Shown: positions 1,676-64,000 of the stretch, in pieces
Layout of the letters: the number at the start of each line of letters is the position of its first letter
Numbering within the stretch: position 1 is the stretch's first letter
Assembly (NCBI GenBank): GCA_029531755.1
Contig: CM055976.1
Location: forward strand, 6,784,493-6,848,492
Length of the DNA: 64,000 nt
From: Holothuria leucospilota
Lineage: Eukaryota
Direction of reading: 5' to 3'
Position numbers and translations under genes: made by a program
The notes under the pieces: generated by a model
Told to the model about the DNA's origin: nothing
Databases searched by the model: none
Seen by the model: only the letters and a program-made list of their open reading frames with translations

Positions 1676-2384
1676 TTATCCAGGGATGCCTTTTTTACGT
1701 CTCTTCCGCTTAGTGAAATAGAATAGAGGGAAACAAGTGTCATAGATATCACGAAAAGTAGAGTTAAAACGAGAAAACGCCGTAGTTACATCATTATCTG
1801 AGCAAATGAAGTCCCAGTTAAAATTACGACAACAAGTAACAAAATTATCGATATTCCTAGTCGAATAGTTCCTAGAATAATATCCATTATCATTGCTTTG
1901 TTTAGAAATGTCCAAACTTAGGAAAATCGGAAAGTGATCAGTGATATCAGTAATTAATATGCCTGAAACACAATGATTATCAACCCTGTTGGTGAATATG
2001 TTGTCGATTAACGAGGCAGATCTCTCATTTATACGTGTAGGTTTAGTTATAGTGGGTTCAAAGCTATTACTAACAATATTGCTAAGAAATTCATTGGTAC
2101 TATCTTTTAACAAATCAATATTGAAATCACCCATAATGTGACAGGGTTTACTTTCACTTGAAATCAAGTTCAAAATTTTATCAATGCAGTCATTAAAATC
2201 ACGGAGAGGACTCTGTGGTGGCCTATATATAACACCTACTATAACGTTTCTATTTCCTCCACCTTTTTGCGGGATTGTAAGTTCCACAAAAAGACTTTCG
2301 ATGATATCGCTAAAAAGACCAATGTCAGATCGCACAGTAAATTCTAATTCCTCATAAACATATAAACACACCCCTCCACCTTTT
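1676..2384 (-). CDS. LINE ORF2 endonuclease (EEP/APE) domain, middle to C-terminal part
   Basis: The ORF translation carries the KGGGV, ESLFVEL, IYRPP, GDFN and NIFTN motifs of LINE APE-type endonucleases. Confidence 0.75.
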
Positions 2385-2435
2385 TGATTCCTTGCCGAAG
2401 GCAGGCAAGGAATCTATGCGATGGTGATGTCGTGT

Positions 2436-2500
2436 GTGTGCGTATGTGTGTGCGTATGTGTGTATGTGTGTGTATGTGTGTATGTGTGTGTGTATGTGAC
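2436..2500. repeat. (TG)n / (TGTGTATG)n microsatellite inside the element
   Basis: Direct reading. Confidence 0.9.
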
Positions 2501-4130
2501 GCTTAGCTTGTAAACACGATATCTCCAGTTAGCAATGACTGACAGTTTTCATATTTAGTATATAGATTTGTCATGTTGAGAGGAAGAACCCTATTGTTTT
2601 TGGTGGAGGTCAAAGGTCATTTGAGGTCACCAGAGGTCAAAAACCGAAAACCTTGTAAACACGATATCTCAAGATAGCAATGACCGACACTTTTCATATT
2701 TGGTATACAGATTTGTCATGTCAAGAGGAAGAACCCTATTGATTTTGGTAGAGGTCAAAGGTCATCTGAGGTCACTGGAGGTTAAGCTGCAAAAACCTCG
2801 TAAATAGCTTGTAAACACGATATCTCAAGATGGCAGTGACCGACACTTTTCATATTTGGTATATAGATTTATCATGTTAAGAGGAAGAACCCTATTGTTT
2901 TTGGTAAAGGTCAAAGGTCATTTGAGGTCACCAGAGGTAAAAAACCGAAAACCTTGTAAACACGATATCTCAAGGTAGCAATGACTGACACTTTTCATAT
3001 TTGGTTTACAGACTTGTCATGTTGAGAGGAAGAACCCCATTGATTTTGATAGAGGTCAAAGGTCATCTGAGGTCACTGGAGGTTAAGCTGCGAAAACCTC
3101 GTAAATGGCTTGTAAACATGATATCTGAAGATAGCAATGACCAACACTTTTCATATTTGGTATGTAGATTTATCATGTTGAGAGGAAGAACCCTATTGTT
3201 TTTGGTAAAGGTCAAAGGTCATTTGAGGTCACCAGAGGTAAAAAACAGAAAACCTTGTAAACACAATATCTCAAGATAGCAATGACCGACACTTTTCATA
3301 TTTGGTATACAGATTTGTCATGTTGAGAGGGAGAACCCTATTGATTTTGGTAGAGGTCAAAGGTCATCTGAGGTCACTGGCAGTTAAGCTGCGAAAACCT
3401 TATAAACGGCTTGTAAACACAATATCTCAAGATAGCAATGACTGACAGTTTTCATATTCGGGATACAGATTTGTCATGTTGAGAGGAAGAACCCTATTGT
3501 TTTTGGTAAAGGTCAAAGTTCATTTGAGGTCACCAGAAGTAAAAGACTGAAAACCTTGTAATCACGATTTCTCAAAATAGGAGTGAAGGACACTTTTCAT
3601 ATTTGGTATACAGATTTGTCATGTCAAGAGGAAGAATGCTACTGTTTTTGTAGAGGTCAATGGTCATCTGAGGTCACTGGAGTTTAAACTGCAAAAGCCT
3701 CATAAACGGCTTGTAAACTCGATATCTCAAGATGGCAATGACCGACACTTTTCATATGTGGTATATAGATTTGTCATGTTGAGAAGAACCCTATTGTTTG
3801 CGGTAGAGGTCAAAGGTCATCTGAGGTCACCGGAGGTAAAACTGCGAAAAGCTTGTAAATCGCTTGTAATAATGATATCTCAAGATAGCAATGATAGACA
3901 CTTCATATTTAGTGTGTAGATTTGTCATGTGGAGAGGAAGAGCCCTATTGTTTTTGGTGAAGGTCAAAGGTCATTTGAGGTGTCTGGAGGTCAAAGACTG
4001 AAAATCTTGTAATCATGATATCTCAAGGTAGGAATGAAGGACACTTTTCATACATGGTATGTTGATTTGTCATGTTGAGAGAAAGAACCCAATTGTTTCT
4101 GGTAGAGGTCAAAGGTCATCTGAGGTCACT
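2500..4130. repeat. Satellite array. Monomers of about 148 and about 160 bp alternate, giving a higher-order repeat of about 305 bp with roughly 11 monomers
   Basis: The anchor ttgtaaacacgatatctcaagatagcaatgac recurs at 2507, 2655, 2808, 2955, 3107 and onward. A and B variants alternate: ...gaggtcaccagaggtcaaaaaccgaaaacc versus ...gaggtcactggaggttaagctgcaaaaacctcgtaaatagc. Confidence 0.85.
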
Positions 4131-4510
4131 GGAGGTCAAAAACAAAATTTCCTAAGAATTCCCAAGATCGTCATATGTGGTCACCAGAGGTCAAAAAGCA
4201 AAATTTCCCAAGAATTCCCAAGATTGTCATATGGGGTTACCACAAGTCAAAAGGCAAAATTTCCCAACAATTTCCAAGATTGTCATGGGGTCACCAGACA
4301 TAATAAAGCAAGAATTCCCAAGTGTCATTTGGGGTCACTAAAGGTCAGAAAGCAAAATTCCTCGAGAATTCCCAAGATCATCGTCTGGGGTCACTAAAGG
4401 TCAAAAAGCAAAATTTCCCAAGAATTCCCAAGATTGTCATCTGGGGTCACCAGAGGTCAAAAAGCAAATTTCCCAAGAATTTTCAAGATCCAAGATCCAT
4501 TGGAGGTCAG
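4130..4510. repeat. Short-period satellite of about 57-60 bp, derived from the 3' part of the large monomer (ggtcaccagaggtcaaaaagcaaaatttcccaagaattcccaagattgtcat...)
   Basis: Visible 57-60-bp periodicity. It shares ggtcaccagaggtcaaaaa with the 148-bp monomer. The same sub-array sits at the 3' end of copy 2, at 62590-62810. Confidence 0.8.
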
Positions 4511-4676
4511 AGGTCATTTGAAGTCATCAGAAGTTAAATACCAAATGCATTGAAAAACACGATATTTCAAGACAGGTATTAGATACTTGTAATACTTGTG
4601 AATTTGAGGGATAAACCTCAGTGCAACAAAGCATCCCCATTTGGCAAGGAATCACTAAGCCTTTGGGCTTTCTGGT

Positions 4677-5233
4677 TTATTATTCATGTTACATTCAACC
4701 ATTTTATAGTTACTAAGTTGGATAAGTGGGGGCAAACAATCACTGAACCATGTTTCTGTAAAGCCTAAGACGGTAAAAGTGTGGTCTAATATCGTTAAGA
4801 GGTTAGAAATGGAATCAAGGTTCTTTCTCAAGCTCCTGCTGTTTAGATGGAAAAGGGAAAAATCACCATGGGTAAGTTTATTAAAACTATCAATGTTGTA
4901 GTAATTACTGGAATCGATTGTGAATGTCTCATAGAGTGAAGAGAGACTTTGCGAGAGAAAATCACCACCTTGATTCATGGAGCGAGTGTCTTGAATTGCA
5001 TCTCTAAAGGCGTTATCATCAATTAAGTGATTAAATGGTAAATTAACACAACAGTCCCCGCAAGTCCAGGGCGAAATGGTACCGGTATTATTTTGGGTAA
5101 CGCATAAGTTGTGGAAATATTTTTTACAAATACAACATTTACTTACTAAACTTCTACTTGCTTCATAATCAATGGATCTTTTACACTTACTGCAGAAAAC
5201 AAACATAAATGAGAGTGACACACAAACAAACAA
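4677..5233 (-). mobile_element. 5' part of the same CR1/L2-like LINE ORF2. It holds a PHD-like Cys-rich zinc finger and the N-terminus of the APE endonuclease. The Helentron-like insertion separates it from 1034-2384
   Basis: ORF 4655-5233 (-) reads CSKCKRSID...CCICKKYFHNLC...WTCGDCC. Further on it reads FSLFHLNSRSLRKNLDSISNLLTILDHTFTVLGFTETWFSDC, the EN N-terminal signature (ETW motif). The last codons, ...KPESPKA, are read from element sequence. Together with 2384 the EN is complete except for about 8-10 residues. Confidence 0.7.
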
Positions 5234-5338: not shown

Positions 5339-6876
5339 TTGGACCCCAATATTGGGGCTACAGCAGTTATTGAATGTGACTATGTAAAAGGAGACAGTAT
5401 GGATGAGAATTTAGATAGCTCTTTTAGACAAGACAACGAGGATTTACTGTCACTTCCCCATATGGAACCTACCGAAACTATTGCAGATGTTGAAATTAAT
5501 CCTAACCTCCCATCAGAGCAAATTAGGCAGATTAAAAGAGTATTGGGAAATTTTCATGACATTCTGACTGACGTAACACTCCCTTACTCACCCACCAAAT
5601 TAATTTGACATCAGATGAACCTATTAGGGTGAAACAATACCCCCTCCCCCATGCTACGCAAGATGTGATACAGAAAGAAGTTGCAAAAATGTTGGAAATG
5701 GATGTTATTGAAAGGTCAAATTCACCATACTGTTCACCTGTTGTAATCGTTAAGAAAAAGGATGGAAGTAACAGATTTTGCGTGGATTACAGACGTTTAA
5801 ATAGAGTGACAATTTTCGATGCAGAACCTATGCCTAACCCAGATGAAATATTCGCACGTTTAGCTAACTCCAATTACTTTTCGAAATTAGACTTAAGCAA
5901 AGGTTATTGGCAAATACCCGTTGAAGAACATGCCAAACCATTGACTGCTTTTTCAACACCTTCAGGGTTATTTCAATTCAAGGTTTTACCCTTTGGCCTT
6001 GTTAACTCTTCAGCAACATTTAATCGTATGATGCGTATTTTATTGTTTGACCTAGACCATGTTGACAGTTATATTGATGATATTCTCATTTATACTTCCA
6101 CTTGGGAAAAACATATCGAAATTCTAGGGGAAATTTTGAAAAGGTTACGAAAAGCAAACCTTACAATTCGTCCTAGTAAATGTAGCCTGGGAATGGAAAA
6201 CATTGAATTTCTGGGACACATCATTAGCAGAGGGAAAGTATACCCCCAGGATTGTAATACAAACAAAATTCAGAATTCCCCTCGCCCTCAAACCAAAAAA
6301 CAGCTTCGTTCATTTCTGGGTCTGGCGGGCTATTACCGAAATTTTATCCCAAATTATGCTGCAATAGCCGCCCCACTTACAGACAAAACGAAGAATAAAG
6401 AACCAAACCAAATTGTTTGGGGAGATAGCCAAGAAATTGCTTTCTCCACTTTAAAGGAAAAGCTGACTAGAAAACCAATTCTTCACCTCCCAGATCTGTC
6501 CAAACAATTCACGCTTAGAACAGATGCCTCAGATATCGGTCTTGGTGCAGTCCTCCTTCAAAACTTCCATGACGAATTATTCCCCGTAGCGTTTGCTAGT
6601 CGGAAACTTTTGCCCAGGGAAAGGGCGTATTCAGTAATGGAAAGAGAGTGTCTAGGTGTTGTCTGGGGTGTAATCAAGTTTCAGAGATATTTATATGGTA
6701 AAGAGTTTGTCCTGCAAACGGACCACGAACCACTTGCATTTATGCAGAAATCCCGTATGACAAACAATCGTATTATGCGATGGGCACTAGCTTTACAGCC
6801 TTATAAGATAAGAATAGAAGCTATTAAAGGCTCTGAAAATGTAGGGGCCGATTTTTTGAGCCGTGTTGTAAATTAG
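5339..6876 (+). mobile_element. Ty3/gypsy-like LTR-retrotransposon pol fragment. It contains reverse transcriptase and RNase H only. No protease start, integrase or LTRs are visible
   Basis: ORF 5605-6876 carries the RT motifs SPYCSPVVIVKKKDGSNRFCVDYRRLN, LDLSKGYWQIP, FKVLPFGLVNSSATF, YIDDILIY and FLGHIIS. The RNase H motif TLRTDASDIGLGAVLLQ is also present. ORF 5339-5608 is the upstream pol part, joined with a frameshift near 5600. Confidence 0.8.
5605..6876 (+). CDS. pol polyprotein fragment (RT-RNase H) of the LTR retrotransposon
   Basis: Same motifs as the parent feature. A stop at 6876 is followed by no integrase. Confidence 0.75.
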   Translation: MTSDEPIRVKQYPLPHATQDVIQKEVAKMLEMDVIERSNSPYCSPVVIVKKKDGSNRFCVDYRRLNRVTIFDAEPMPNPDEIFARLANSNYFSKLDLSKGYWQIPVEEHAKPLTAFSTPSGLFQFKVLPFGLVNSSATFNRMMRILLFDLDHVDSYIDDILIYTSTWEKHIEILGEILKRLRKANLTIRPSKCSLGMENIEFLGHIISRGKVYPQDCNTNKIQNSPRPQTKKQLRSFLGLAGYYRNFIPNYAAIAAPLTDKTKNKEPNQIVWGDSQEIAFSTLKEKLTRKPILHLPDLSKQFTLRTDASDIGLGAVLLQNFHDELFPVAFASRKLLPRERAYSVMERECLGVVWGVIKFQRYLYGKEFVLQTDHEPLAFMQKSRMTNNRIMRWALALQPYKIRIEAIKGSENVGADFLSRVVN

Positions 6877-13839: not shown

Positions 13840-14115
13840 CATATAGTTCTGATTTGGATTGCACCATCACCTATACATTCGGTATTAATGCACCAGTGTG
13901 TTTTTAATGGTTAAACTTATATATTATGATTATCAGTGGTGTATTTGAGGAGCCATTAGGCCATTCCCCCGTCACTGACGCCGATTATTTTAGTACCTAA
14001 AATAAAACACAAAATTTTACTTCAAAGGTAGCATATGTGGCACCAGATTGCATGTAAGGATACCTTATTTGTCAAAAATTTTCAAAGGGTAGGGGGTGAT
14101 GCCTTTTTTTTTCTT
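13840..14115 (+). repeat. R1 repeat copy, partial, ending in a poly-T immediately before the LINE
   Basis: Matches the reverse complement of 10040-10390 and the plus strand of 17560-17700. Confidence 0.7.
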
Positions 14116-14129
14116 TTAGTACCTAAAAT

Positions 14130-14505
14130 ACGTCGGAGCTTGCCTTGCAATCATAGGCCGGTCAGTTTAACCAGTGTTGTGTGCAAAGTTATGGAATCTG
14201 TAATCAAGGATTGTTTGCTTAAATATCTTTTAGATAATGGGTTACTCAATCTGTCACAGCATGGTTTTTTACCGAGTAGATCTTGTGTTACTAATTTACT
14301 AAGCTTTCTTGAGGATGTTTCCTTATCTCTTGACTGTGGTCACAGTGTTGATGTCATTTACCTTGATTTTTCAAAAGCCTTTGATAAAGTTCCATTAGGT
14401 AGACTTATGGTTAAACTGCATACTAGGTTAGGCATCAGGGGCAGTTGTGCTGACTGGATAAATTCATGGCTCAATGGTAGATCTCAGAGAGTTGTACGTT
14501 GTTAA
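14130..14505 (+). CDS. LINE RT fragment, N-terminal motifs
   Basis: Translation motifs as listed in the parent feature. Confidence 0.7.
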
Positions 14506-15899: not shown

Positions 15900-16590
15900 A
15901 ATCCATATCTGGCTTTATATCTGGAAATATCTGGTTGATTAAAGACTTTATATGGCCATATAAAGCCATATATAACTTGATTAAAACACAACCCAGATAT
16001 GCATATAAAGTTTGGTATGGCCATATAAAGCCAGATATAACTTGATATAATCGTGATCCAGATATGTATATTAAGTTTGATATGGCCATATAAAGCCAGA
16101 TATAACTTGATAAAACTGTGATCCAGATATGTATATAAAGTTTGATATGGCCATATAAAGCCAGATATAACTTGATAAAATGGTGATCCAGATGTGTATA
16201 TAAAGTTTGATATGGCCATATAAAGCCAGATATAACTTGATTAAAACATAACCCAGATATGCATATTAAGTTTGATATGGCCATATAAAGCCAGATATAA
16301 CTTGATATAATCGTGATCCTGATATGTATGTAAAGTTTGATATGGCCATATAAAGCCAGATATAACTTGATAAAATGGTGATCCAGATATGTATATAAAG
16401 TTTGATATGGCCATATAAAGCCAGATATAACTTGATTAAAACATAACCCAGATATGCATATTAAGTTTGATATGGCCATATAAAGCCAGCTATAACTTGA
16501 TATAACCGTGATCCAGATATGTATATAAAGTTTGATATGGCCATATAAAGCCAGATATAACTTGATATGCTAGATATGCAAATGAGCATT
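15900..16590. repeat. 60-bp satellite of about 11 monomers (tatggccatataaagccagatataacttgatWaaa...gatccagatatgtatataaagtttga). Two monomer variants alternate
   Basis: Exact 60-bp spacing of ccatataaagccagatataacttga at 16021, 16081, 16141 and onward. Confidence 0.9.
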
Positions 16591-43100: not shown

Positions 43101-44910
43101 CTGCGTCGGCCACCGTCCTCTTCTATATCACGCTTAAGAGCAGAGCACATGAGATCTCTTACAACATGATTTTGTGTCTCTATTTTGTGTCTCATCTCAT
43201 TTTGTCCTATCATCAACCAAATAATGTTACGTACAGTTCCCTACCTGTATGGAGATTTAGGTGGAGGAATGCACACCTCTAATACCAAACAGCCTGGACA
43301 TAACTTTCCATATGCTATATGCAGACTTGGATGTCCAGTCGGTCATATGTAATGTAATGTAAATTTATTCTTTTAAGGCAACTCCCAGGCTAGTACAGTG
43401 TAATGCTATGCCACTTAATTTTGCAGAGGGTTACATGCTGTATAGTACCACAGTATTATTGCAGGGGGTTGTATGCTAAACACAGTGTTATTGAAAAGAG
43501 TTGATGTCAAATAGCCACCCTGTGGTCCAGAACAGTTCACTATACCATTTGTGTTTTAGGGAATAAGGGAATTGGCTGTCACATAGTACCGCTACCTCCC
43601 TGTTTCAGTGCTTTGTAATGCTATACCATTGTGTTATTGCAGGGAGTTACAGTCAAATACTTACCACATCCCCATGGTGATTGTTTGGTCTGTAAAGTCT
43701 TATGCATGCAGTATTTGATTTAGATGTGTTCAAATTTTATAACTGTACAGAGGTGATGTGTACTTGTCAGAAGGTATTTTCCCTCACGTTTTTGATCAGT
43801 GGTGTGTTTGTTGAAGAGACAAATCTTCAAGCCTGCCTACAGTATTTTATTGTCTGAAGTTCAAATGAAAAAACTTCCCTGATAACTAGGAAACAAAAAC
43901 TCAAACATATGTTCCAAACAAGCAAGCTGCATTAGTCATAGTAAAACTTGTGAGTTGTGTGCTTTGGTGGTGAAGTAAGTTAATGGTTGATAGTTGTATA
44001 CACACTGCCACTCTGCAATGTGAGCACAGCAGTGCACTAGTGTCATGTGCATTGGGAGGTCAGTGTGGTTACACAGCGTCATCAAACCTTTTTAGTTAGA
44101 CATGTAAGTTTATGGATACTGTACTGCAAATCCTTGGTAATCAAACCCTTTTCCCACCAGGCTGAGAGCCACTTAGAGGAGGATACTACTGTAAATTTAT
44201 GGCAACCCAAAGTGAATGGATAGTTCAGAATTGCCTGTGTGAACTTTTGTGTCAGCTGTCCCATGTGTTATTACTGGGTGATAACTGTAATGCATTGGTA
44301 TATTCAAGGAGGGAGTATACCATACTGTAGGTGGGCTGGGTGTCCCCCTTCAAATTTTGCTTTGGAAGGTGACTTAGGTGCAAAATGGTGTCATTTTCTT
44401 CCTTTTCTTGTGTGTTTATGTTCTGCATTTTTCCTGGAAAATCAAGATATTTTAAGGCACTTTGGGACCACTTGAATGTTACTATTTCAGTTTGAAGGCC
44501 AACTTTTGAACACTCGTGAAGTTAGCTTCAAAACATATTTTGGACTGTTTGGTCTGAGATGCAACTGAATTATAATACTCACAATGCTTAGCTTTTATTA
44601 GTAGGACTTCTTGGCCCTGCTTGTAATTTGCAACATGTGTGCTTACAGTAACTAAGAAGGTGAATGTCCGTATTGGTCTTTGTGGTTGTTTTGTATGAAA
44701 GTTTTGACCAGGGGCAAGCCTCTAACCAAGGGAGACTGGAGGGATGCAGCCTCCTCTAGAAAATTTTTTGCCTCCCCTAGAAAGTCAAAAATTTCCACTG
44801 CCTTAATGTATTTTAGTATATATCTTGTACAGTGTCACTCCCTTAGGAGGCTGTGTGGCCCCCTTTCAGAACTTTGTGTGGCTACAGGCCTTGAATGGGG
44901 TCATAATTTT

Positions 44911-45641
44911 TGATTCTTTGCGTAAGCAAAAGGAATCTGTGATGATGTTTTTGCGTGTGTGTGAGTGTACGGTATGTGATGCTGGTTGTAAACATGATAT
45001 CTCAAGAATGTTAACCTTGAGTGATATCATACTTGGCATGCAGGTACCCCTTATTGAGTAGATGATCCCTATTGTTTTTGGTGGAGGTCAAAGGTCATTT
45101 GGTCAGGAGAGGTCAAAAGGTCAAAACCTTGTAAGAGCAATATCTCAAGAAGGGTAACTGTGCGGAATGTCATAGTTGGCATGTAGATTGCCCATAATAC
45201 AGTAAGTAGATGATCACTATTGTTTTTGATTGAGGTCAAAGGTCATTTGGGGTCACCAGAGGTCAAATGGTAAAAACCTTGGGAATTGCTTGTAAACATG
45301 ATATCTCAAGACAAATTGGTTTGAGGGATCTCATACTTACCTTGTAGATTGCCCATATTAAGCAGATGACCCCTATTGTTTTTGGTGGAAGTCGAAGGTC
45401 ATTTGGTCACCAGAGTTCAAAAGGTCAAAACTTGTAGACATGATATCTCAAGTAGGATAACTGTGAGGGATCTACCACTTGAAAGGTTTCAAAAGGTCAA
45501 AACCTTATTAACATGATATCTCAAGTAGGATAACTGTGAGGGAGCTTATGCTTGCCATGTGGGTATCATTTCATGTTTGTTACAATATATCCACATGGCA
45601 AGGAATCACTATGCCTTTTGGCTTTCTGGTTTGTAAAAGTA
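44911..45641 (+). mobile_element. Helentron-like element, copy 3, short and diverged. Termini are 5' tgattctttgcgtaagcaaaaggaatc and 3' ggcaaggaatcactatgccttttggctttctggtt. It carries about 4 satellite monomers
   Basis: It has the same terminal architecture as copies 1 and 2. The internal units ...ttgtttttggtggaggtcaaaggtcatttggtcaggagaggtcaaaaggtcaaaacc are related to the 148-bp monomer. Confidence 0.55.
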
Positions 45642-60017: not shown

Positions 60018-61040
60018 GTAAGTATATCTGGAAGCATACTGGTATGTCAATGCCCCCTCAAATCAGTATTGTAGCTGTAATCCCATGAAAAAGCCATGAA
60101 TTATACCCCCCCCCCCCCTTCATAATTTGTCTGTCTATGTAAGGACTTGATATACCTGGAAAAGGTAAGGCTGAATGCCAGTCAGCTGGCACAAATTTGG
60201 CAAGGTACTGAGGTTTAGCAAGAGAGAAATCAAGTTAGAAACCAAGAAAATGTAGGGCATCAAGTAGAAAAAGTACAGATGGCATCAAGATTATTAAGGC
60301 CTTTGGTGTTGGCCATTTTTAGGGGCATGAAGGCAAGGTAGGGGAACCCCAAAACCATGGCTTGTGGTGCATGTGGTCATTTCAAGCCCTGCCATGGGTA
60401 TAGCTAAGTGAAGATGGAGGTGCTCAAAATGTGTGTTTCATTGTATGGAGGCAATAAAAATAAAAAATTTTTACCCACAGTAGATTGATTTTAGAGCAAC
60501 TGAGCTTGTAAGTTTACCACGTTGGTAAAGCCTGAATGCACTTTAATTTTCTCTTCATAGATCTGTATTTTAGTTGGTCTGTATTTTCAAGCTGTCATTT
60601 ACCAGTATATCTTGATGTGTCACTAGAACACTATTTGTCTGATCATGTGTTGTTTGTAAATCATTGTGAGACTTGAGTTGATATCAATCAAACAACAGAC
60701 AAGGCCATCATAGATGTTGGTTGAATTTCATTTTTCCGATGATATTATGCCTATTTAGTTTTTATTGACTCAGCAAGAGAGTTAACTGTTATTAAGTGTG
60801 ACTCAGTTAGTACAAAAATACTTTTCAAGGCTCAAGCTGTTGATTTTAAAACATATAACTCAAATAGAGTTAACTGTGAAATCTGACTCAGTTTAACAGT
60901 TTTATAATGAGTAACTTCACTTCATGGTCCAGATTAAAGACCATAAGTAGGACTCAGTGTAGTTTTTGATTCCTTGCCGAAGGCAGGCAAGGAATCTATG
61001 CGATGGTGATGTCGTGTGTGTGTGTGTGTGCGTGTGTGTG

Positions 61041-61690
61041 CACTCACAGACACCTCCTTAGCGGGACATGGGCAGCCGGCGAGAACTAAGCTCTCGCATG
61101 TCTTTCCTAGCTCACGCGCGGCTCGAAACTGGCGTAGCTGCCTGAGAATTCCGTCACTGGAATGAGAAGTCTCGCGCGGCTGCACGTGCCTGCCTTGCGA
61201 GCAGCCCGCCCTCCAGACACGTACGTCTACCGGGTGAGTTGGAGGCCAGCCAAGCTCATGGGGAAATCCCGTGAATTCCTTACCGGGTCCTGTGTACGTG
61301 TACCGGTAAGGCAGCGAGGGTGCGTATGTGTGACCCGAAGCTGTGTGTGCATGTCTGAGGCTGCTGTGGGCATGTGTGTGCACTCACAGACACCTCCTTA
61401 GCGGGACATGGGCAGCCGGCGAGAACTAAGCTCTCGCACGTCTTTCCTAGCTCACGCGCGGCTCGAAACTGGCGTAGCTGCCTGAGAATTCCGTCACTGG
61501 AATGAGAAGTCTCGCGCGGCTGCACGTGCCTGCCTTGCGAGCAGCCCGCCCTCCAGACACGTACGTCTACCGGATGAGTTGGAGGTCAGCCAAGCTCATG
61601 GGGAAATCCCGTGAATTCCTTACCGGGTCCTGTGTACGTGTACTGGTAAGGCTGGGTGGGTGCGTATGTGTGTGTGTATGTGACGCCTAG
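61041..61690. repeat. Two near-identical tandem copies (period 340 bp) of a GC-rich, CpG-rich unit (gcactcacagacacctccttagcgggacatgggcagccggcgagaactaagctctcgca...). They are absent from copy 1
   Basis: 61041-61380 matches 61381-61690 with about 6 mismatches. Each unit is bounded by (TG)n. Copy 1 passes directly from (TG)n to ...tgtgacgcttagcttgtaaacacgat. Confidence 0.85.
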
Positions 61691-62590
61691 CTTGTAAACA
61701 CGATATCTCAAGATAGCAATGACCGACACTTTTATTATTTTGTATATAGATTTTTCATGTTAAAAGAAAGAAACCCATTGTTTTTGGTGGAGGTCAAAGG
61801 TCATTTGAGGTCACCAGAGTTCAACAACTGAGAACCTTATAAACACAATATCTCAAGATAGCAACGATGTACACTTTTCATATTTGGTGTACAGATTTGT
61901 CATGTCAAAAGGAAGAACCCTATTCTTTTTAGTAGAGGTCAAAGGTCATCCGAGGTCACCAGAGGTGAAACTGTGAAAACCTCATAAACGGCTTGTAAAC
62001 ACGATATCTCAAGATAGCAATGACTGACACTTTTCATGTTTGGTATATAGATTTGTCATGTTGAGAGAAAGAACCCTATTGTATTTGGTGAAGGTCAAAG
62101 GTCATTTGAGTTCACCGGAGGTAAAAGCTGAAAAGCTTGTAATCACGATATCTCAAGATAGGAATGACCGACACTTTTCATATTTGGTATCTAGAGTTGT
62201 CATGTTGAGAGAAAGAACCCTATTGTATTTGGTGGAGGTCAAATGTCATTTGAGGTCACCAGAGGTCAGAGACTGAAAACCTTGAGATCACGATAAATCA
62301 AGATAGGAATGACTGATATAGATTTGTCATGTTGAGAGGAAGAATGCTATTGTTTTTGGTAGAGGTCAAAGGTCATGTGATGTCACCAGAGGTCAAAAAC
62401 CGAAAACTTTGTAAACACGATATCTCAAGTTAGCAGTGACCAACACTTTCATATTTGGTATACAGATTTGTCATGTCAAGAGAAAGAACCCAATTGTTGT
62501 TGGTGAAGGTCAAAGGTCATTTAGGGTCACAGGAGCTAAAAAACTGAAAAGCTTGTAGTGACAATTTCTCAAGGTAGGAATGATGGACAC
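61690..62590. repeat. Satellite array of about 6 monomers, the same 148/160-bp family as 2500-4130
   Basis: The anchor cttgtaaacacgatatctcaagatagcaatgac recurs. A and B monomer variants alternate. Confidence 0.85.
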
Positions 62591-62810
62591 TTTTGATATT
62601 TAGTAAAATTTCCCAACAGTTCCCAAGATTGTTGTATGGGGTCACCAGAGGTCAAAAAGCAAAATTTCCCAAAGAATTCCCAAGATCGTAATCTGGGGTC
62701 ACCAGAGGTCAAAAGCAAAATTTTCCGAGTATTCCCAAGATCTTAATCTGGGGTAACCAGAGGTCAAAAAGCAAAATTTGCCAAGAATTTTCAAGATCCA
62801 AGATCCATTG
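62590..62810. repeat. 57-60-bp sub-satellite (ggtcaccagaggtcaaaaagcaaaatttcccaa(a)gaattcccaagatcgtaatctgg)
   Basis: Same periodic unit as 4130-4510. Confidence 0.8.
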
Positions 62811-64000
62811 GAGTTGAATCCCTTTCAAGACACTTCTGTTTTCCTTTTTGTTATATTTGGTTGTGTTCAGAGGTCATATGAGGTTAGCAGGGGTCAAATT
62901 GTTAAAACATCATAAAATGATGTATTCAAGAAAGATAAATTTGAGGGATAAAGCTCAGTGCAACAAAGCATCCCCATTCGGCAAGGAATCACTAAGCCTT
63001 CGGGCTTTCTGGTTGTTAAATGTGACTCAGTTAAGGAGGTAAAACACTTTGTGGCCTAGATGCCCTTCATGGCCCAGCTACCCTTCATGGCCCTTCATGG
63101 CCCAGCTTCACAGCCTAGTGGTTTTCGTTGCCTGCATATACTTCATGGCCCAGACTTTTTGCTGTGAGTGACTGAGTTCTGGTGTGAAAATATCTTTCTT
63201 TTTTATGCTCCAGGATTTTAGTTTATTGAATCTGTGCATGTTAGCACTTAATTCTTTGGCTTTATGAAATAAATATTTATTTGAAATAATACAGTATGTT
63301 ACATTGTTTGATTTAGAATACCTATTGTTAGATACAAGTAAATGGAATAAAATGTAGTAAATGAAACTAAAATGAATAATCTGGAAGTGAAAAGAAGGGC
63401 CTAAGCTCAAATCAAGCTTTGATATGTTAGAGGGGTACTTATTCTAAGCAATCTTGTGAAATTTCTATTGAAATCCGATGTGTGGTTCTCAAGATATCAG
63501 CAGATAAAGTTGTCACATTTTCAACAGAAAGTGAACTTGGAGCAAGCACATATTATGTCATAGCCTCACATTAATTAGCAGTCTTTTGTTTTTCTTTAAA
63601 CTTTATCACCAATTTTCTCCTGAACAAGCAAATGTTATTAGAATACGATTGCATGAGAGGCATGAGAAAATTACAAACTTCACATTCCTAACGGGGAGGT
63701 CCTATCCCTATTAATTTCAAGTTCAACACAACAGACTGAAAAAATAAAAGAAACAAAGCACTCCTTATCAATGTGAGGAAGTGATATCAGGGAGCTGCAG
63801 CCTAATGATTTAACTCCTCCTTGCCTCAAGCTCACTTTGCTTTACAAATTTAGTTACTTCTTTTGCTTATATCTCGAGTAATACATGTCCAGTTTGAATG
63901 AAAATTTTACCAAAATGCATAGATTTAGTTCCTCTTTCACAGATGAAAAGAAAATTTTTGCTTAAACCCTTCTTTTAAGAATCATTGTCCAAGGGCTAGT

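Follow-up and report, generated by a model that had tools for sequence, protein, structure and literature searches.

Capture of host DNA by Helitrons and Helentrons is well established, and the Helitrons of maize and bats take up gene fragments. Histone fragments in the Helentrons of Culex are mentioned in PMC4067079. The closest described systems to the element analyzed here are the non-autonomous Helentrons (HINEs). The Cg_HINE elements of Crassostrea gigas (PMC7492417) share several characteristic features with our element: (i) the left flank contains a subTIR, an inverted repeat and a microsatellite, (ii) the right flank contains a subTIR and a palindrome, (iii) the target is T-rich and is not duplicated upon insertion, and (iv) the central repeats are satellite-like and have a fixed orientation. 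In the C. gigas HINEs, a segment of 10-500 bp that is highly variable in sequence and length separates the microsatellite from the first repeat, and two of them, Cg_HINE_10_13 and Cg_HINE_11_12, contain two consecutive, even unrelated, repeat arrays (PMC7492417). The DINE-1/HINEs (Thomas et al. 2014, PMC4067079) also agree with our element in the presence of subTIRs, an inverted repeat near the 5' subTIR, a 3' stem-loop, a microsatellite and central repeats, as well as in the TT/T-run target, the variable terminal Ts and the lack of coding capacity.

By comparison with the literature, pearl of Crassostrea virginica, DTC84 of Donax trunculus, MgE of Mytilus and Tsp of sea urchins belong to the same HINE type. 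As they are cited in PMC7492417 and PMC4067079, these elements have a microsatellite followed by short arrays of ~160-bp repeats, and the Tsp elements place HINE-type elements in echinoderms. No mention of Helentrons in sea cucumbers was found in the literature searched; thus, the HINE family reported here may be undescribed.

The sequence analyzed is a stretch of 64 kb from the sea cucumber Holothuria leucospilota (contig CM055976.1), hereafter called the window. It contains three HINE copies, of which copy 2 carries a GC-rich tandem array with a period of 340 bp (Table 1). According to the criteria of Thomas et al. 2014 (PMC4067079) and Vojvoda Zeljko et al. 2020 (PMC7492417), the element carrying this array is a HINE in every structural respect. 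Copy 2 starts with a T-run, the 5' subTIR GATTCCTTGCC, a 7-nt loop, the inverted repeat GGCAAGGAATC, a 17-nt spacer, (TG)n and two 340-bp units, which are followed by a TG tract, 145-bp repeats, 56-bp repeats, the 3' subTIR GGCAAGGAATC, a palindrome and the terminus TCTGGTT. The 5' and 3' subTIRs are exact complements of each other, and the same pair is present in copy 1. The left-flank motif was matched exactly at two sites of the window and in none of 100 shuffles, and the right-flank motif has three matches in the window and, again, none in shuffles. The microsatellite behind the left flank is a standard HINE feature (PMC7492417, PMC4067079). The 3' palindrome is located 7 nt before the terminus at 63014 and has equivalents in copies 1 and 3 and in the Tara Oceans plankton contig L002. 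T-runs border copy 2 on both sides. None of the ORFs of the element has a Pfam match above threshold, and the element thus has no coding capacity; a Rep/helicase ORF was found nowhere in the window. The host element had been called Helentron-like in an initial annotation of this DNA, and the terminal motifs and the structure now make it a HINE. Copy 2 is itself nested in another repeat, as recurring TGACTCAGTT(A)A motifs are seen on both sides of it (60700-60960 and 63015-63040).

Table 1. HINE copies of the window and component features of copy 2
Feature	Position	Strand	Basis or remark
HINE copy 1, of the same subfamily as copy 2, without the 340-bp unit	2381-4677	+	Located within the endonuclease ORF of a non-LTR retrotransposon
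HINE copy 3, of a different subfamily, without the 340-bp unit	44907-45631	+	Variant left flank GATTCTTTGC gtaa GCAAAAGGAATC; right flank with 2 mismatches
HINE copy 2, complete, with the 340-bp array	60963-63014	+	Exact 5' and 3' terminal motifs; both ends and the repeat arrays align to copy 1; T-run at each border
Left flank: 5' subTIR GATTCCTTGCC (60968-60978), 7-nt loop, complementary inverted repeat GGCAAGGAATC (60986-60996)	60968-60996	+	Motif search
Upstream (TG)n microsatellite of the left flank	61014-61040	+	Read from sequence
Unit 1 of the GC-rich 340-bp tandem repeat	61041-61380	+	TRF, composition, homology to H. leucospilota P0001, P0004-P0006, P0008-P0010
Best-conserved unit core: two CGCGCGGCT direct repeats, CACGTG E-box, inverted partner GCAGCCGGCGAG	61066-61232	+	All 7 H. 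leucospilota models align here
Degenerate TG-rich inter-unit junction, counted within unit 1	61333-61380		Read from sequence
Unit 2 of the 340-bp tandem repeat, ending inside the downstream TG tract	61381-61672	+	TRF
Downstream TG-rich microsatellite, linking the unit array to the 145-bp repeats	61660-61683	+	Read from sequence; order matches H. leucospilota P0008
~6.3 monomers of the 145-bp central tandem repeat	61689-62605	+	TRF; 81-83% identical to the copy 1 array
3.5 units of the 56-bp tandem repeat	62605-62798	+	TRF; counterpart in copy 1 at 4115-4490
Right flank: 3' subTIR GGCAAGGAATC (62980-62990), palindrome AAGCC-TTCG-GGCTT (62994-63007), terminus TCTGGTT	62980-63014	+	Motif search

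Tandem Repeats Finder (TRF) described the two units as a single array at 61025-61672 with a period of 340, 1.9 copies, 97% matches and no indels. The same pair was recovered by self-BLAST of the last 6 kb of the window. The cores of unit 1 and unit 2 differ at 7 of 280 positions (2.5% divergence), and several of these differences are of the CpG-to-TpG type. The GC content of the units is 60% and their CpG o/e is 0.85-0.93, whereas copy 2 outside the units has 38% GC and a CpG o/e of 0.35; the respective values for the whole window are 39% and 0.47. TG tracts are found on both sides of the array, and the units are separated by a TG-rich stretch of degenerate sequence. A sensitive search revealed no further copy of the unit in the window, and the unit is absent from HINE copies 1 and 3. 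The single-strand fold predicted for the unit is not unusual (z-score, -1.18). The initial annotation had reported a near-identical, GC-rich and CpG-rich tandem pair of 340-bp units in this region, bounded by TG tracts and restricted to copy 2. TRF, self-BLAST and composition bear out the pair and the coordinates given for it; the TG tracts are seen before, between (in degenerate form) and after the units; and the restriction to copy 2 within the window holds also when copy 3, which had not been listed, is taken into account. The very recent duplication that had been proposed likewise agrees with the 2.5% divergence, by which the units are young or recently homogenized.

Some features of the array distinguish it from the repeats of the described HINEs. 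The unit is 330-340 bp long, contains 60% GC and is not depleted of CpG, whereas the Cg_HINE repeats are 140-180 bp long and contain 31-45% GC. In further contrast to Cg_HINE, the unit array is bracketed by TG tracts and has only two copies, the element combines three repeat types (340, 145 and 56 bp), and its microsatellite consists of (TG)n instead of a GTCY-like motif. The relatives that we found belong to a sea cucumber, whereas Cg_HINE belongs to a bivalve, and the likeness between the two is one of architecture, by the published description. The DINE-1 consensus (PMC4067079) likewise contains no GC-rich repeat of long period upstream of the main central repeats. The architecture of the family is that of a standard HINE plus an extra satellite-like array.

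The 340-bp unit is non-coding. Its period is not a multiple of 3; thus, the two units are read in different frames. The homologous H. leucospilota copies described below also align to the window in different frames, and no reading frame is conserved. A Pfam search in all six frames across the unit revealed no family above threshold. A match to Methuselah_N at 21.2 bits (cut-off, 21.5) was dropped; its Cys-rich frame is produced by the TG repeats. No Rfam family was found either for the region at E-values up to 10 or for the whole window at gathering thresholds, matches to miRNA models being chance hits on the TG tract. The ORFs listed in that annotation do exist and do mirror each other, and its view that they are not genes is upheld by the lack of Pfam matches and of a conserved frame: the ORFs called across the units are a by-product of GC richness. 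The absence of a conserved frame and of Pfam and Rfam matches suggests that the unit is a satellite-like internal repeat of a HINE subfamily.

ORFs that span repeats are sometimes annotated as proteins. We used translations of the unit (the minus-strand frame, and the other five frames concatenated) as queries against protein collections, and a profile search was run against 1.84 billion representatives. The protein searches gave seven true matches, all of them hypothetical or chimeric gene models of H. leucospilota, located on seven scaffolds. The proteins KAJ8021775, KAJ8035386, KAJ8032584 and KAJ8029035, among others, come from the H. leucospilota chromosome assembly. Their similarity to the unit, measured on protein models only, is 53-84% amino-acid identity in arbitrary frames, and in the best models the unit core reaches 74-84%. 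Two high-scoring profile matches, P0007 and P0011, were rejected as long, perfectly periodic database artefacts, one of which contains a translated sequencing-adapter motif, VSYTHLDVYKRQ. When metagenomes were scanned with a conserved 21-mer, 17 matches were obtained, all of which were dismissed as chance matches of 21-25 nt in bacterial contigs with 63-71% GC. Exact look-ups of four ORFs of the window gave no match.

Four of the seven models are informative on the context of the unit. The model P0005 contains RNLCDGDVVCVC, an exact translation of the HINE left flank and TG, followed by the unit at 82-84% identity. The model P0008, read on the other strand, contains the start of the 145-bp repeat ('LLEISCLQ'), the TG tract ('HTHTHTH') and the unit, in the same order as in copy 2. 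The model P0004 reads through ~2.8 units in tandem, spaced 110 aa (330 bp) apart, of which the last two are nearly identical, and then into a TG/TA microsatellite. Since the inter-unit junction of P0004 aligns to the inter-unit junction of the window, the tandem state is older than the split between these copies. In P0001, the unit is followed by a TG-type microsatellite. Thus, HINE flanks are directly visible in two of the seven models (P0005 and P0008), and a microsatellite only in two more (P0001 and P0004). The orientation of the unit relative to the HINE parts is identical in all informative models. Older H. leucospilota copies have undergone CpG decay at conserved motifs (e.g., CACGCGCGG to CACGTGTGG in P0005), a pattern more in line with a young window copy near the master sequence of the family than with selection.

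The same position and orientation of the unit at several H. leucospilota loci argue for a family module and against a one-off host capture. We consider it highly probable, from comparisons in which the other loci are represented indirectly, by protein models of one annotated genome, that the 340-bp unit belongs to a HINE subfamily as a tandem-repeat module of satellite-like, non-coding character. The subfamily would have the order left flank, (TG)n, [330-340-bp unit]n, (TG)n, [145-bp]n, [56-bp]n, right flank. By analogy with the family, the module would be carried passively when an autonomous Helentron mobilizes the HINE by rolling-circle transposition. The number of units may rise and fall by unequal exchange or replication slippage, both between the units and between the flanking TG tracts, and such events could generate elements with 0, 2 or ~3 units, which are the copy numbers observed across the elements. 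The 2.5% divergence between the units of copy 2 would then reflect a recent duplication or homogenization inside an older, already tandem module. Copy 1 may have lost the module by recombination between TG tracts, or its lineage may never have had it; either polarity is compatible with this scheme. Loss or gain by recombination between TG tracts, of which the initial annotation had put forward the loss, fits the data, and of the two origins named there, the family-specific module is favored by the recurring HINE-linked units in the H. leucospilota models. A feature that the module model does not account for is the strong GC and CpG richness of the unit in a CpG-depleted genome.

The unit occupies the position that is known to vary in HINEs, behind the microsatellite of the left flank. 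In the present family, this variability is illustrated by related elements in the Tara Oceans contigs L001 and L002, which contain the left-flank motif with 93-97% identity. No insert is present behind the microsatellite in L002, where TG leads straight into 145-bp repeats as in copies 1 and 3. The minus-oriented contig L001 (1.4 kb) contains two HINE left flanks (~1283-1100 and 805-520), and a different insert follows the TG tract of each; neither insert is related to the 340-bp unit. The motif GTGCAC directly follows (TG)n both in the L001 inserts and in the unit of the window, and copies without insert have GTGAC at this position. The GTGCAC at the start of the inserts may represent either a junction motif common to them or a foldback of TG/CA.

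An origin of the module itself by capture is conceivable and compatible with the module model: the ancestor of the subfamily may have taken up a CpG-island-like or regulatory host sequence that has since been propagated and tandemized. We regard this as a tentative possibility, clearly less probable than not. The CpG richness, the CACGTG E-box and the repeated CGCGCGGCT motifs of the unit point in this direction, as do the use of the site as a hot spot for unrelated inserts and the filler-DNA model discussed for the central regions of HINEs (PMC7492417). However, no source locus was found in the window outside the array, no context other than a HINE is evident among the H. leucospilota models, and the 5' region of an autonomous Helentron partner is an equally possible origin of the unit.

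We assign a low probability to a functional role of the unit as a cis-module spread by HINEs, either as an unmethylated, CpG-island-like promoter or enhancer or as a source of extra rolling-circle origins resembling the 5' end. The promoter variant is consistent with the E-box, the repeated CGCGCGGCT motifs and a CpG o/e of ~0.9, compared to 0.47 for the genome, and the origin variant is consistent with the subTIR-like motif, the hairpin and the TG tract at each unit end. Transcription of HINE repeats is relevant in this context. Three unannotated unigenes from H. leucospilota coelomocytes (Unigene1518, 1366 and 6841) are differentially expressed, and qPCR primers for them have been published (PMC7161275). 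These primers match the 145-bp HINE monomers of all three copies (2507-4143, 45080-45400 and 61689-62605) with 0-2 mismatches, and control primers from the same table of PMC7161275 have no match to the HINE repeats. The primer matches to differentially expressed unigenes suggest that HINE repeats are transcribed in H. leucospilota. The retention of the unit in the H. leucospilota models and the differential expression of these transcripts in coelomocytes are compatible with the cis-module reading, but they are no proof of it.

Far less can be said for a one-off capture, in which copy 2 alone took up a host fragment (promoter, CpG island or rDNA spacer) that was then duplicated; we consider it very improbable. 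In composition, the unit differs from the remainder of the element (60% GC and a CpG o/e of ~0.9 vs 38% and 0.35), the unit is found in only one of the three HINE copies of the window, unrelated filler sequences occupy the same site in related elements, and capture of host DNA is known for Helitrons and Helentrons. All this would suit such an event, and captures of host genes by these transposons have in common with our locus a foreign-looking DNA within a rolling-circle element. However, no host gene or RNA gene is detectable here, the unit having no similarity to protein or RNA families in Pfam and Rfam, and the segment is a recurrent tandem module of many copies. It occurs at no fewer than seven H. 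leucospilota loci, constant in position and orientation relative to the left flank, the TG tract and the 145-bp repeats, and already in tandem. The suggestion of the initial annotation that this copy had captured a host fragment or promoter is thus largely refuted by the recurrence of the unit as a HINE-internal module in the H. leucospilota models.

Equally improbable is that the unit is an independent small mobile element (either a short transposon or a 5' end derived from another HINE) that inserts into TG microsatellites. One might propose this from the subTIR-like 11-mer ATTCCTTACCG at 61275-61285, from the hairpin CCTTACCGG...CCGGTAAGG (a 9-bp inverted repeat) at 61278-61311, followed by GTGCGTATGTGTG and the TG tract, and from the 'NSLP' codons over the subTIR-like motif, which are kept in P0004. 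However, 70 of 500 shuffles reach an equally good score, so that the likeness of the unit to the HINE left flank is not significant; the units are arranged head-to-tail with a junction conserved in P0004; within the HINE, they never change position or orientation; neither a T-rich target nor a solo copy was observed; and P0001 does not evidently retain the hairpin. Two other similarities were discarded: the likeness of the unit to the HINE right flank is also not significant against shuffles, and that of the inter-unit junction to the leader of the 145-bp repeat reflects shared TG richness only.

The preferred reading of the unit as a HINE module has direct consequences for annotation: repeat masking should cover the block as HINE sequence, and its interpretation as a gene, as a captured promoter or as a CpG island of the host should be avoided. 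In H. leucospilota, no fewer than seven gene models have already been contaminated by the module, and two of them are fusions with real genes. To the picture obtained from the oyster and Drosophila, our result adds a case of echinoderm type; in this picture, non-autonomous Helentrons build up, transport and spread several unrelated tandem-repeat modules, and new modules enter and leave at the microsatellite directly behind the 5' end. In the model P0005 (KAJ8032584), sequence of the HINE left flank and the unit is fused into a nucleoplasmin-like gene model, and in P0006 (KAJ8035..., POMGNT2-like), HINE/unit sequence is fused into a glycosyltransferase gene model. These fusions may represent exonization, but they are more likely an annotation artefact of unmasked repeats.

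Between copies 1 and 2, which belong to the same subfamily, identity is 94-96% at the termini and ~83% in the 145-bp arrays. Copy 1 contains 11 monomers of the 145-bp repeat, compared to ~6.3 in copy 2, and 7 units of the 56-bp repeat, compared to 3.5. The collinearity of the two copies except for the 340-bp units, as initially annotated, is therefore correct in outline, but not in detail, given the identity of the arrays and the different monomer numbers. The TG tract of copy 3 is short, and its 145-bp repeats, present as ~3.5 monomers, belong to another subtype, with 72-76% identity to the repeats of copies 1 and 2. Copy 3 and the contig L002 have identical right flanks.

The insertion site of copy 1 could be compared to its empty state. 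Two parts of the disrupted AP-endonuclease ORF of a non-LTR retrotransposon flank copy 1, at 1676-2371 (-) and 4655-5233 (-). An intact relative of this retrotransposon, P0012 (86% amino-acid identity), is present in the ENA contigs L020 and L021 (90-92% nucleotide identity), and the best H. leucospilota protein is only 38% identical to the LINE around copy 1. At the empty site, the uninterrupted LINE in L020/L021 reads AATAAAAAGGGTGG, with a T5 run on the element strand and no duplication. Thus, copy 1 entered a T5 run without target-site duplication, as Helentrons do.

Most of the window is a patchwork of transposable elements; host genes were not recognized in it. ORFs for reverse transcriptase and RNase H, from retrotransposons of the LTR type, are located at 5605-6876 (+) and 14035-14505 (+). 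An unrelated tandem repeat at 15950-16567, with a 65-bp unit in 9.5 copies and 89% identity, overlaps a minus-strand ORF of 195 aa without a Pfam match.
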